56,183 bases of DNA from a virus (taxonomy: Duplodnaviria > Caudoviricetes), in the IMG/VR virus record IMGVR_UViG_3300017913_003170, positions 1 to 56,183 of that record; one strand, 5' to 3'. Of this stretch, positions 45,459-50,945 are shown one piece after another (positions within the stretch are counted from its first letter, which is position 1; each line of letters opens with the position of its first letter). A model generated the notes under the pieces. It made no database searches. It was not told the DNA's origin and was given only the letters and a program-made list of their open reading frames with translations. The position numbers and the translations under genes were made by a program.

Positions 45459-46329
45459 GCTCTTTTACCTTTGTGTAGTTGTATCCTGCAACAATTGCCA
45501 ATCGTTGTCCGCCTGGCGGATGTGCACAATCCCAATCATTTACATCCCAATATACATGTTCAATGTTTGGATCAAACCGTGCGCTCAATTGTTCGCGATC
45601 TGCTTTCTTTATTCGATAGCGTTTATTTAATTTACCCCACACAGGAACAGTGTAACAGGTCTCGCTTTGCAGTTTTGGTTTGCTCCAATTTTGGCCATTG
45701 TAGAAGTTTGCAACGCTGACAATATAGCCTTTGCCATAGCCCAGCATCATATCCATGTTGGGTCTTAGGTGCACTTCAATGCAATGATCGTCAATGAATT
45801 CAAAGTTTACACAGCCTCGGTATTGACTCAAATGATCTTCAATGAATCTCAGCACAAACTTTTTTCTAGTCAGCAGTGCTAGTTCTTGTGTATGATCAGG
45901 ACTGGTGTATTCCCAATGTGTAAACATACCCAAACCACTGTTGTGACCTATGCTGTATCTCCAATCGTACACTCGACAGTTGTCCACAACCACATCCAGA
46001 CAACTGTGCTCACCAGCCAATATCTCCATGCAAAGGTGTGCAGGTTTGTATGCAGCATAGTAATCATCGCTGTCGGTGCACACACAGGTATCTATGCCCA
46101 TTCCCCAAAGGTTTTCAAAGGGCTTGCTGAAACAGGGCAAAAACTCAGGTTCCATTCCATGTGGAAACCAGCGAAGATTTTGATAATCATACAGCTTGCG
46201 CTTGTCATATACCCAAGCATATTCTTTATACATTTTTATGGAATACGTATCTTCAAGAGGTATATCAGACTCAAGAACCACTTCCATGTCCTCACAGAAT
46301 TGTGAGAACTGTTCATTTCCTAACCACAT
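45412..46329 (-). CDS. ATP-grasp-fold-like protein
   Basis: PCFSKP..NLWGMG, MEILAGEHSCLD, GCVNFEFI....IEVHLRP resemble ATP-grasp K, E and ExNxR motifs; AGGAGG upstream. Confidence 0.6.
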   Translation of the reverse strand: MWLGNEQFSQFCEDMEVVLESDIPLEDTYSIKMYKEYAWVYDKRKLYDYQNLRWFPHGMEPEFLPCFSKPFENLWGMGIDTCVCTDSDDYYAAYKPAHLCMEILAGEHSCLDVVVDNCRVYDWRYSIGHNSGLGMFTHWEYTSPDHTQELALLTRKKFVLRFIEDHLSQYRGCVNFEFIDDHCIEVHLRPNMDMMLGYGKGYIVSVANFYNGQNWSKPKLQSETCYTVPVWGKLNKRYRIKKADREQLSARFDPNIEHVYWDVNDWDCAHPPGGQRLAIVAGYNYTKVKEHAEKLSNYFNGGRTT

Positions 46330-46471
46330 ACGTTATTATACACCTCCTGTATGTGATGTCTTACGACATCAGTTTCTTCGTCTTTCGACTCGAAACGCTT
46401 TTTTATTTACTACGTTTTGTAATTTATTCAGTGTTTCAATGTTAGTTGATAGTAGTCTATTTAATTAGTTC

Positions 46472-46758
46472 TTTGGCCGAAGTGTTCAGTCGCACTTAGC
46501 CTGTTTACGGCCAAGCACGACTTATTCCTTTGTCCTCGGAACACCCGCAATATCAATGTGCAACTTTATAACAAGCAGAGGCGGTTGAGCTATACCCCTT
46601 TACGCACGTCTTTACAACGCAGGACCATTTACAGCATTGATATACCCTGTAAACTGCCTCCGGGTTGCAATAGCACAGCAGAGCCCGGTCATTTGGTTTG
46701 TTGTCCTCGACAAGATCCGGTGGCGACGAGCTTTACCTCGGCTACCTCAATGTCACAA
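46472..46758 (-). ncRNA. Candidate ~290 nt structured RNA directly downstream of the GIY-YIG gene
   Basis: GC-enriched non-coding tract; 14-bp hairpin with G-U pairs (46488-46522), 9-bp loop pseudoknot (46635-46643 with 46550-46558), several further helices. Confidence 0.65.
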
Positions 46759-47193
46759 TTAGGAGGATATGGTTTGTTTTTGGAGAGATTCAGTTAGTGC
46801 CTTGGAGCCGCCTACACGGACGTTGATAATACCATTGTAGTATTCGTCCGTCAATAATACTTGCCTATCAAACTGTTCTTTGGCTTCTAAGTAACTTAGT
46901 TCGCCTCTGCTGGTGCAGTAGTACAGTATTTCTCTTGTGAAGTTTTCTGGGCCTAGTTGATTTACATCTGCTTGTAGTTTGTCACTTGAACCCCAGTAGT
47001 CACGCCAATCGCTTTCGACTGTGGTTCTTCTTTTGCGTTTTTTGCCTTTGAGTGGTGGCCTGGTTTTTTTGAACTGTGCTAGTTTTTTGCCTACGTATTT
47101 TTTGCCATTGGTAGTATTTGTAATCAGATAAACAAAGCCAATGTAGTGTTCAGGTATTGATTCAACTATGTTGCCTTCGTATGTCCAATGCAT
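46759..47193 (-). CDS. GIY-YIG endonuclease (Seg/EndoII-like, 144 aa)
   Basis: GFVYLITNTTNGKKYVGKK, WRDYWGSS, FTREIL...E......YYN. Confidence 0.9.
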   Translation of the reverse strand: MHWTYEGNIVESIPEHYIGFVYLITNTTNGKKYVGKKLAQFKKTRPPLKGKKRKRRTTVESDWRDYWGSSDKLQADVNQLGPENFTREILYYCTSRGELSYLEAKEQFDRQVLLTDEYYNGIINVRVGGSKALTESLQKQTISS

Positions 47194-47233
47194 GTTATTG
47201 TATGTTATCGTTGTGTTTAGTTATCGAGATATC

Positions 47234-47596
47234 TTAGTCTTTATCTATGTACTTTTTCTGTAAATGCGGAGGAAGTTTTCGTTCCATTGTTGTTCTTCGT
47301 GTATCCAATGTTAGACCACCGTGTATATCGGTAATATTGAAAGTATCTCCACTGATGGTATAACCGTATCCGCTTCCGTCGAGATCATCAGTTGAACTGA
47401 TTGTTATAGTACTAGTATCGCATGATGTTGACAATCCGCTCAAATCAATATCTCCCATGTTTTCAATTCGTGTACAAATTTCATCAACTGTGGTTTCCCA
47501 GTCTTTGTCTTCTTTGATCAATGTGCGTTCAGTTTCGCCCGACTCACGTGCATACACTGTTTTTCCGCCATCTGGCGATTCATAAATCTTAGCCAT
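47234..47596 (-). CDS. Hypothetical protein
   Basis: Likely start MAKIYESPDGGKTVYAR at 47596 with GGAGG RBS, overlapping the gp46 stop. Confidence 0.7.
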   Translation of the reverse strand: MAKIYESPDGGKTVYARESGETERTLIKEDKDWETTVDEICTRIENMGDIDLSGLSTSCDTSTITISSTDDLDGSGYGYTISGDTFNITDIHGGLTLDTRRTTMERKLPPHLQKKYIDKD

Positions 47597-49364: not shown

Positions 49365-49938
49365 GCTTTTCTATAAACTCATAGTCCTCTTTGTAAGTAT
49401 CTTCTACTATGGCAAGTTGTTTTTTACTAAACCATTGTGTTTCCCATCCGTGCGGAAAGTCGGTTTGATTTTTTGTTGGTATACCAAGCTCTTTGGTGAG
49501 ATTTTCAATCTGCATTACACGAAGTTGAGATTGGTATTGTTGATCGACAAAATGTGTTTGTGGATACAGGTGATGCACTTTCATGTTTGTGTCCAGTACT
49601 GGCCAATGATCCATCCATATTGCCAGTTTGCTTTTTACATTGTAGTCATCGATATCAATGTTTATTCGGTCAATAAACCATTCTTTAGTTTTCTTGTATT
49701 TGCCTTGACCTGGTATCATGTAGTGTCCAAATGTACCCCAAGCACGTTGAACAGGATCACGCACAAAAACCAGTATATCATTGACTGTGCTGTGTGGCTT
49801 TGTGTATTCCAAATTTGACTTCACTGTGTGGCTGCCGTTTTTTGGAATTTCAAACCAACCACGACCATCGGGCAACTGCCACAATGCTGGAAATACTATA
49901 TCAGTACAGTAACCACATTCGCAAGTTTGAAATATCAC
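49351..49938 (-). CDS. Sulfotransferase (Sulfotransfer_2-like)
   Basis: 5'-PSB-like IPKNGSHTV, 3'-PB-like FVRDPVQR, HLYPQTHF, C-terminal Y.EDY; N-terminal CECGYC. Confidence 0.7.
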   Translation of the reverse strand: MIFQTCECGYCTDIVFPALWQLPDGRGWFEIPKNGSHTVKSNLEYTKPHSTVNDILVFVRDPVQRAWGTFGHYMIPGQGKYKKTKEWFIDRINIDIDDYNVKSKLAIWMDHWPVLDTNMKVHHLYPQTHFVDQQYQSQLRVMQIENLTKELGIPTKNQTDFPHGWETQWFSKKQLAIVEDTYKEDYEFIEKHAKI

Positions 49939-50945
49939 AAACTTCTCCAGATGTCAACTAACATGCTTTTGTCAATGAACTCGCTGTCTACCAAGCTAAG
50001 TTGATTATACACGATTTGATCCACACTTTCAACCTCTATATCTGCCTCCGCTGCCCAATCAACTGCATGATCATCTTTCTTGGCAGGTTGCAAACTGAAC
50101 TCTCGCAGATTGTAATCTCTAGTGAGTGTTTCCTTTAGAAAGTTTGCTTCTTCGTAGCTTACGTTGACATCCAGTGTAACACGTGCATATGTGTTTTCAT
50201 CCAAATAACGATCAGGATCTTCTACTAATTGACTCAGTGGGATTGTAATGTACTTGGGTCCTGTGTAGTTTACATATTCAGGTTCTCCGTCCCATTCCAA
50301 GAACATTGCACCGCGCTCGTGATCCCACGCATCTGCATAGTTGTGTCCAAACGGTGAACCCAAGTAATGAATGTTGCCTTGATTCTGTCGTTTGTGAAAG
50401 TGTCCACTGAACACGTATTCAGGATTTGCAAAGTCTTCTGTTTTTAGTCCGCCATGATCTGGCATTTCTACCATAGCATTCATTTTGAAATAGGGCAACT
50501 CAAAATGTCCAAACACATATTTGCTTTTGAGTTTTTTCATAGCACGCCATTCGTCGCCAATGAGCCACGGAACCAGTGCTACACCGTCTTGTTCAAACAC
50601 ACCGTCATTGATCAAATGCACATTGTGATGCAGTCCTGCATACGGCATGCTGTGGATTTCACGCTTCTCACGATAGTATAGATCATGGTTGCCCATAATC
50701 ATATACACGTTTTCAAATGTTTCAGCTAAAAAGCCCACATTGCTCACACTGTAGTTCAGTGTACTGGTGTTTACTGTTGCTCTGTGATGATGCCAATCAC
50801 CCAAGAAGATGCAGGTTTCTGCACCACGTTCTTTTGCTTCTGCACAAAACCACTTGACAAACGCTTCACAATCGTCGTTGAACATACGATTGTTGTTTTT
50901 GTTGCCAAAGTGGATGTCTGTAAAACATGCCGCTTTTTTGAACAT
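49935..50945 (-). CDS. gp47: Recombination nuclease, SbcD/Mre11-like
   Basis: FTDIHFG, FLGDW, GNHD, FGHFE, SGHFH metallophosphoesterase motifs. Confidence 0.95.
   Translation of the reverse strand: MFKKAACFTDIHFGNKNNNRMFNDDCEAFVKWFCAEAKERGAETCIFLGDWHHHRATVNTSTLNYSVSNVGFLAETFENVYMIMGNHDLYYREKREIHSMPYAGLHHNVHLINDGVFEQDGVALVPWLIGDEWRAMKKLKSKYVFGHFELPYFKMNAMVEMPDHGGLKTEDFANPEYVFSGHFHKRQNQGNIHYLGSPFGHNYADAWDHERGAMFLEWDGEPEYVNYTGPKYITIPLSQLVEDPDRYLDENTYARVTLDVNVSYEEANFLKETLTRDYNLREFSLQPAKKDDHAVDWAAEADIEVESVDQIVYNQLSLVDSEFIDKSMLVDIWRSL

Follow-up and report, generated by a model that had tools for sequence, protein, structure and literature searches.

The window, by which we mean the whole stretch of DNA that was analysed (positions 1–56,183), is a 56-kb IMG/VR viral record of a T4-like myovirus. 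The phage is marine, and because the closest cultured gp46 is only 47% identical to the gp46-like ATPase of the window, its clade is one of uncultured marine T4-like myoviruses. Read along the minus strand, the locus under study comprises a 336-aa ORF, a 591-aa SbcC/gp46-like ATPase, a 133-aa ORF, a 144-aa GIY-YIG nuclease, a 429-nt tract free of ORFs and a 305-aa ORF, in that order (Table 1). The 305-aa neighbour has no relatives among the viral contigs searched, so the insertion boundaries are not exactly definable. Elsewhere in the window, four giant minus-strand ORFs of 1391–2383 aa (9934–33583) are rich in internal repeats, of 12-nt period and longer, that are common to the four; they presumably encode structural proteins resembling fibres or adhesins.

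The 144-aa protein is a compact nuclease of the SegE type. Its sole Pfam domain, PF19835 (SegE_GIY-YIG; E 5e-36), spans residues 3–123, and PHROG 447 matches at E 1.3e-39. While a sequence comparison with the PDB gave no significant match, the AlphaFold model (pLDDT 86) finds its top PDB fold matches in the I-TevI catalytic domain, at a probability of 0.89–0.95 and weak E values (0.14–0.28). The C-terminus is modelled as a single short low-confidence helix, and neither Pfam nor the model reveals a second domain or a recognisable RNA-binding module. Homologues in 80 viral loci measure 139–151 aa; 144 aa is therefore a normal length and not the product of truncation. Seg-type free-standing GIY-YIG homing endonucleases share the catalytic domain with the window nuclease, but they possess a separate C-terminal DNA-binding domain, which it lacks, and are distributed sporadically as mobile elements, whereas the window nuclease is syntenic, lying downstream of gp46 in 64 of 76 gp46-anchored loci. 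Among cultured phages, each phage record carries one nuclease copy (522 records). Homologues of the protein in cultured cyanophages are widely annotated as 'NAD synthetase', a label that PHROG 447 bears as well and that looks like a propagated misannotation.

The nuclease gene is followed directly, on its own strand, by a structured RNA that extends from 46767 to about 46468 and is laid out as a 5' domain (P1, H1, H3 and H4) and a 3' domain (H5–H10 and a tail). The tract after the nuclease stop has a GC content of 0.495, above both the window (0.426) and the nuclease gene (0.407). Homologous loci show the same enrichment: in all 56 that have 400 nt or more of downstream sequence, the first 300 nt after the stop exceed the whole locus in GC. 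Most of them have an ORF-poor gap of 340–880 nt at this place. The tract folds at −99.5 kcal/mol compared with −87.5 ± 5.3 kcal/mol for shuffled versions (z −2.26), none of 100 shuffles being as low. It contains no minus-strand ORF of at least 40 aa; no reading frame is conserved across 52 RNA homologues, in which the longest open stretch is inconsistent; and a search of the window for tRNA and tmRNA found none. A 79-aa antisense ORF (46558–46797, plus strand) overlaps the RNA and is probably spurious, since an open stretch of at least 90 codons over the RNA is kept in just 3 of the 52 homologues. Assignment to the nuclease-sense strand follows from the never-varying G-U pairs of H6 and H10, which are compatible with that strand only. 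An nhmmer profile of RNA homologues has a single match in the window (46481–46752, E 5e-51), and R1, a covariance model of the 3' domain, scores 108.7 bits at 46469–46623.

Beyond the RNA comes an AT-rich spacer, alignable among close relatives only, and then two conserved hairpins at 46372–46396 and 46354–46371 that end immediately ahead of the next gene's ribosome-binding site. The hairpins are kept behind several RNA types. That they might represent a repeated element was ruled out, as they are single-copy in the window.

Table 1. Features of the nuclease–RNA locus, in order along the minus strand
Feature	Coordinates	Strand	Evidence or remark
336-aa ORF	49935-50945	minus	in gp47 position (placement only)
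SbcC/gp46-like ATPase, 591 aa		minus	Pfam AAA_23, E 5.8e-17
133-aa ORF		minus	between gp46-like gene and 144-aa nuclease gene
GIY-YIG nuclease gene, 144 aa, SegE-type, catalytic domain only	46759..47193	minus	Pfam, PHROG, AlphaFold
Structured RNA, ~300 nt, group-1 type	46468..46767	minus	nhmmer, covariation, R1 model
P1 5' strand, UCCUC	46763..46767	minus	within the final two sense codons of the nuclease gene
H1, variable hairpin, CGAG/CUCG at tip	46719..46746	minus	35 variants
P1 3' strand, GAGGA	46704..46708	minus	pairs with 46763-46767
H3 hairpin, internal loop and conserved 9-nt apical loop	46660..46688	minus	covariation
H4, 3-bp lower stem, 8-bp upper stem, pseudoknot-forming loop	46621..46659	minus	
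Pseudoknot 5' strand (H4 loop)	46635..46643	minus	
Central junction: H5, H8 (closing helix), H6, H7 (variable hairpin)	46558..46620	minus	
Pseudoknot 3' strand	46550..46558	minus	
H9 hairpin	46523..46543	minus	35 variants, all hairpins
H10, 14-bp stem, invariant 3' strand	46488..46522	minus	
3' tail, direct-repeat copy 2	46468..46487	minus	conservation stops here (A3)
Spacer, AT-rich, poorly conserved	46397..46467	minus	GC 0.30-0.32 (100-nt windows)
Two tetraloop-type (four-base loop) hairpins	46354..46396	minus	seen in group 2 and other loci

The fold is carried by a covariation alignment (A3) of 52 distinct group-1 sequences, in which eight column-stable helices were counted, pseudoknot included. 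Of the 2286 cells in their 44 column-stable pairs, 99.1% are paired, compared with 39–43% when the partner is slid by 1–3 columns. Compensatory changes occur in 15 of the 44 pairs, four of them in the pseudoknot, and two-sided changes number 184 cells versus 51.8 ± 7.4 in shuffles, a value reached by none of 500. Column-wise pair counts on the MAFFT alignment failed for H1, upper H4, H7, H8 and H9; variable stems were tested instead by per-sequence folds and by setting cognate against swapped duplexes. H1, H4, H7 and H9 occur as 35, 25, 19 and 35 distinct variants, respectively, all of which form hairpins at energies well below shuffled ones (for H1, a mean of −8.2 versus −4.6 kcal/mol). Cognate duplexes are likewise favoured over swapped ones in P1 (−9.05 versus −5.77 kcal/mol), the pseudoknot (−11.35 versus −7.39 kcal/mol) and H8 (−4.31 versus −2.17 kcal/mol).

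Individual helices bear out this picture. P1, a new long-range helix whose 5' strand occupies the 1–5 nt before the nuclease stop, has five pairs, 96.9% paired, three of them with compensatory changes. H3 is 100% paired, with compensatory changes in five of its eight pairs, and the lower stem of H4 shows them in two of three. The 9-bp pseudoknot is 98.1% paired, and four of its seven aligned pairs are compensatory. Immediately after its 3' strand, a UGC (46547–46549) pairs in relatives with a GCA near the 5' end, as detected by RNAalifold and covariation; in the window the partner site reads ACA (46751–46753), leaving one A-C mismatch. H6, with its conserved 13-nt loop, is invariant, and because it never varies covariation is uninformative about it either way. 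In the window, H9 forms between 46538–46543 and 46523–46528, while 12 columns of H10 are 99.5% paired, with one compensatory and five one-sided changes. A direct repeat of 9–12 nt has its first copy in the H9 loop (46523–46534) and its second after H10 (46468–46487), and the two copies co-vary between lineages in parallel orientation. All variable segments within the fold are base-paired stems.

Much of this architecture had been proposed in a sequence-only reading of the window, which described a GC-enriched non-coding tract after the stop, extensive folding of its minus strand, and wobble pairs that work only on the strand of the nuclease. These points hold, as does the claim of a real, conserved, pseudoknotted RNA after the nuclease gene, and the covariation looked for among homologues is present. 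Among the helices proposed there, CGAG/CUCG is the tip of H1, CCGGG/CCCGG enclosing UGC/GCA is H3, UUUACAG/CUGUAAA is upper H4 and the 14-bp stem is H10; the 9-bp pseudoknot was placed correctly. Two proposals gave way to the family-wide fold. The hairpin UUGUC-GAG-GACAA is displaced by P1, with which it is mutually exclusive because GAGGA pairs with UCCUC, and the GGGUGUUC/GAACACUU stem is lineage-specific, the family having hairpin H9 at that place.

The RNA belongs to a family that is abundant in marine viral metagenomes. Seventy-three downstream tracts form one blastn-linked cluster with the window, and of the 182 nuclease loci with at least 350 nt downstream, 144 contain the RNA by iterated nhmmer; such locus counts include some contigs fetched more than once and overstate the number of independent cases. 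The remaining 38 loci have other tracts, mostly a 'group 2' RNA of ~480 nt that shares with the RNA of the window an H10-type hairpin, the tail and the two downstream hairpins. A 16-base core pattern occurs in 108 viral stretches, 91 of which have a GIY-YIG gene within 900 nt upstream; the other 17 consist of two cut by contig ends, two with a PDDEXK gene, four with the GIY-YIG gene farther upstream and an ORF between, and nine without further similarity, as expected by chance for 16 bases. A 21-base core pattern found no match in 185,579 prokaryotic species genomes. In metagenomes, partly the same data as IMG/VR, it marks 83 stretches, of which 74 have GIY-YIG upstream, nine are too short upstream for a judgement and none has neither. 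A blastn comparison of three RNA types with cultured phages gave no match, and literature searches found no description of the RNA.

Within this family the RNA is modular, since a conserved 3' domain is joined to at least three alternative 5' domains. For instance, four relatives (L019, L045, L052 and L064) begin the tract behind the nuclease stop with 141 nt that match Rfam family RF01718 (Polynucleobacter-1) at 62–90 bits, above a cut-off of 37; a 3' domain homologous to that of the window comes next, so that RF01718 makes up 141 nt of a roughly 400-nt RNA. In Weinberg et al. (2010; PMC2864571), Polynucleobacter-1 appears as an orphan, possibly cis-regulatory motif from Burkholderiales and from fresh water or estuary. 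The four relatives carry it after an orthologous GIY-YIG gene, whereas the 5' domain of the window does not match it. When the L045 nuclease was compared with bacterial genomes, only eight metagenome-assembled contigs matched, none of them Polynucleobacter. Across the window and 32 loci, Rfam returned only RF01718, in those four relatives, besides a sub-threshold RF02942 on the downstream hairpin (22.5 bits against a cut-off of 103.4); the window RNA itself has no match at gathering, and none to RF01718 up to E 10 over 46300–47250. The sequence-only reading, which recognised no named family here, was right about the window RNA; the match to a described Rfam family that would tell against it does exist in part, as the 5' domain of the four relatives. 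R1 aligns full-length to divergent members, RF01718-linked and PDDEXK-linked loci included, and scores 85 bits in L194, a PDDEXK locus. Its default filters yielded 13 matches in 81 sources, a low number attributable to the narrowness of the model (effective sequence number 1.7), and divergent members were recovered with the filters off.

Metatranscriptomes bear on the expression of the RNA. Two seawater runs from one sample yielded contigs over 46544–46846 and 46830–47080, one of which spans the nuclease stop codon; these are contigs only, at a depth of about 3–4, for which DNA carry-over is possible. Contigs give neither strand nor ends, and that none covers 46330–46543 is no evidence of absence; from runs X3 and X4, only fragments of the coding sequence were recovered. 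The contigs are weakly compatible with co-transcription of nuclease and RNA. A good sigma-70-like promoter candidate inside the coding sequence (46826–46854) was discarded, as it is not conserved in homologues, and no conserved promoter for the RNA was found.

The physical relation of RNA to nuclease gene is close and yet separable. In all 166 loci holding both, the RNA lies downstream on the same strand, and the distance from the stop to the start of the match is below 400 nt in 154 of them and 486–1123 nt in the other 12. The five of these long-gap loci that were examined (L091, L139, L158, L258 and L215, with L139 and L158 identical in sequence) all have an extra ORF in the gap. The gap ORFs, found at L091:980–1840, L258:4369–5259 and L215:6555–6863 and also in L139 and L158, encode 102 or 273–324 aa. 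In four further loci (L084, L087, L194 and L195), a PDDEXK_15 nuclease of 168–181 aa stands between gp46 and the same RNA (PF24608, E 7.8e-26, L194:5941–6486; PHROG 244, labelled Holliday-junction-resolvase-like), which is a non-orthologous replacement at one locus. A basic insert in the GIY-YIG protein, stressed in the sequence-only reading, is present in the homologues of Melnitz and P-SSM2 as well, neither of which has a long downstream tract; the insert is therefore a family feature and not an RNA-binding add-on.

A separate observation concerns contig ends. Among 80 viral contigs (L001–L080), 24 break off within the RNA, 33–319 nt past the nuclease stop codon, at scattered positions that may be explained by breaks in the assembly graph where stems differ between strains beside a variable region.

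Taken together, this is an RNA family not yet described, conserved, single-copy and held by compensatory changes that include the pseudoknot, and its structure and conservation are solid. As to what it does, our tentative preference is for an autonomous, undescribed structured ncRNA that ends the recombination-nuclease unit and is probably protein-binding or catalytic. The RNA would sit at the 3' end of a gp47-gp46-nuclease transcription unit and be made by read-through from the nuclease gene, as we infer from a P1 that begins inside the coding sequence and from the failure to find a conserved promoter. The transcript would then function independently as an RNA, most likely as a protein-binding particle, with a ribozyme as the alternative. 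With its two direct-repeat copies on either side of a hairpin that has one invariant strand, the 3' domain could accommodate a dimeric partner, an idea that the duplicated motif may suggest. The link between RNA and nuclease would be one of shared operon and locus, not of guide-RNA targeting; the PDDEXK_15 replacement, the intervening ORFs, the insert kept in RNA-less homologues and the synteny of the gene all argue for independence from the nuclease. Against this reading, close adjacency to a nuclease of either fold and the overlap of P1 with the gene are also what a dedicated partnership would lead one to expect.

That partnership is the strongest of the rival explanations, a live alternative if an unlikely one. 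Here the RNA would serve the small DNA nuclease upstream as a cofactor, as a targeting RNA or as an uncleavable branched decoy, which would keep a structure-specific nuclease in check until needed. Precedent comes from the HEARO/omegaRNA of IscB and the reRNA of TnpB, large structured RNAs at the 3' end of compact nuclease genes; those of the HEARO and IS605-orfB families proved to be guide scaffolds. The window RNA resembles them in overlapping the 3' end of its nuclease gene on the same strand and in the variable sequence behind its scaffold. Its multi-helix junctions and the variable AT-rich tail, the invariable order of gene and RNA, their usual proximity and the overlap of P1 with the end of the coding sequence favour partnership, as does the fact that where GIY-YIG is absent its replacement is again a nuclease. 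IscB and TnpB nucleases are of the RuvC type, with or without HNH, whereas those beside this RNA are GIY-YIG or, in relatives, PDDEXK, and both of these unrelated folds would need to bind the same RNA. The window RNA has no match to the HEARO and IS605-orfB families in Rfam; its locus is syntenic and without transposon ends; the RNA is separable from the gene, an ORF sometimes coming between; and homologues at 43–71% identity do without it while keeping the basic insert.

No guide-like segment, for which the sequence-only reading had advised looking, emerged inside the fold. Compared with guide-bearing scaffolds, the RNA has variable unpaired sequence only in its AT-rich 3' flank, and no guide segment was identified. 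That reading had rightly seen a bare catalytic domain with no separate DNA-recognition domain, and such a protein, lacking any recognisable RNA-binding module, speaks against partnership. In essence, the earlier observation is partly confirmed and its interpretation partly supported: the RNA stands, while the guide-RNA reading is not supported, given a syntenic gene, the substitution of PDDEXK_15, the extra ORFs and an insert kept without RNA. Should partnership nevertheless prove true, the RNA would direct GIY-YIG and PDDEXK nucleases, or gate them as a branched-nucleic-acid mimic, in a system distinct from CRISPR and OMEGA.

Other large RNAs of phages offer further points of comparison. The T4 td intron with I-TevI exemplifies a phage group I intron that carries a GIY-YIG homing endonuclease gene, and the window resembles such introns in its T4-like phage, its I-TevI-like fold and its adjoining pseudoknotted RNA. 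Nevertheless, the group I intron core (Intron_gpI in Rfam) finds no match in the window, all helices of the window RNA close within the downstream tract, and no exons surround it, since the genes on either side are intact, and those downstream vary between loci in what they are and in their strand. GOLLD and ROOL are large orphan ncRNAs of phages and metagenomes; like them, the window RNA is phage-borne, several hundred nucleotides long, multi-helix and without an assigned function, but it matches neither in sequence or structure in Rfam, differs in size and keeps a fixed place after a nuclease gene.

Roles in cis are less likely. For example, the RNA could be a 3'-UTR element of the gp46-nuclease message that stabilises or processes the mRNA 3' end or couples folding to termination, perhaps through self-cleavage close to the stop codon. 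Such a role is doubtful, although the RNA invariably comes last among the conserved elements of its transcription unit, with a variable region after it, and although the role accords with the contig that joins coding sequence and RNA and with the want of a conserved promoter of its own; a terminating ribosome would, moreover, open P1. Yet an RNA of 300–480 nt that combines pseudoknots and invariant loops with modularity in its 5' domain goes far beyond what known 3' stabilisers require, the RNA is kept behind a different upstream gene or an intervening ORF, and no self-cleaving ribozyme family in Rfam matches it.

More improbable is a replication-origin element, in which a structured pre-primer would form an R-loop in the AT-rich sequence that follows. 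The RNA does adjoin recombination and replication genes, a spacer of ~70 nt (GC about 0.30) followed by conserved hairpins lies in the right place, and the contigs that end inside the RNA might be read in the same sense, but those ends are scattered, as strain variation in variable stems would give, the spacer is not conserved, and neither iterons nor evidence of origin activity of any kind was seen. That there is no functional RNA at all, and that the tract either is what remains, after decay, of the C-terminal DNA-binding domain that a Seg-type homing endonuclease would have or folds by chance, is scarcely credible: T4 Seg proteins are indeed longer than 144 aa and an antisense frame is open across the tract, in the window alone, but compensatory changes and slid controls contradict decay, homologues of 139–151 aa are the rule across the 80 loci, and no frame is conserved.

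Large, intricate RNAs backed by covariation are rare, and earlier examples found beside nuclease genes proved to be guide scaffolds or ribozymes. The present family also means that the orphan motif RF01718 is to be read differently, as one interchangeable 5' domain of a larger RNA. A single locus that pairs this RNA with two unrelated nuclease folds raises the question of whether the RNA binds or modulates either enzyme.
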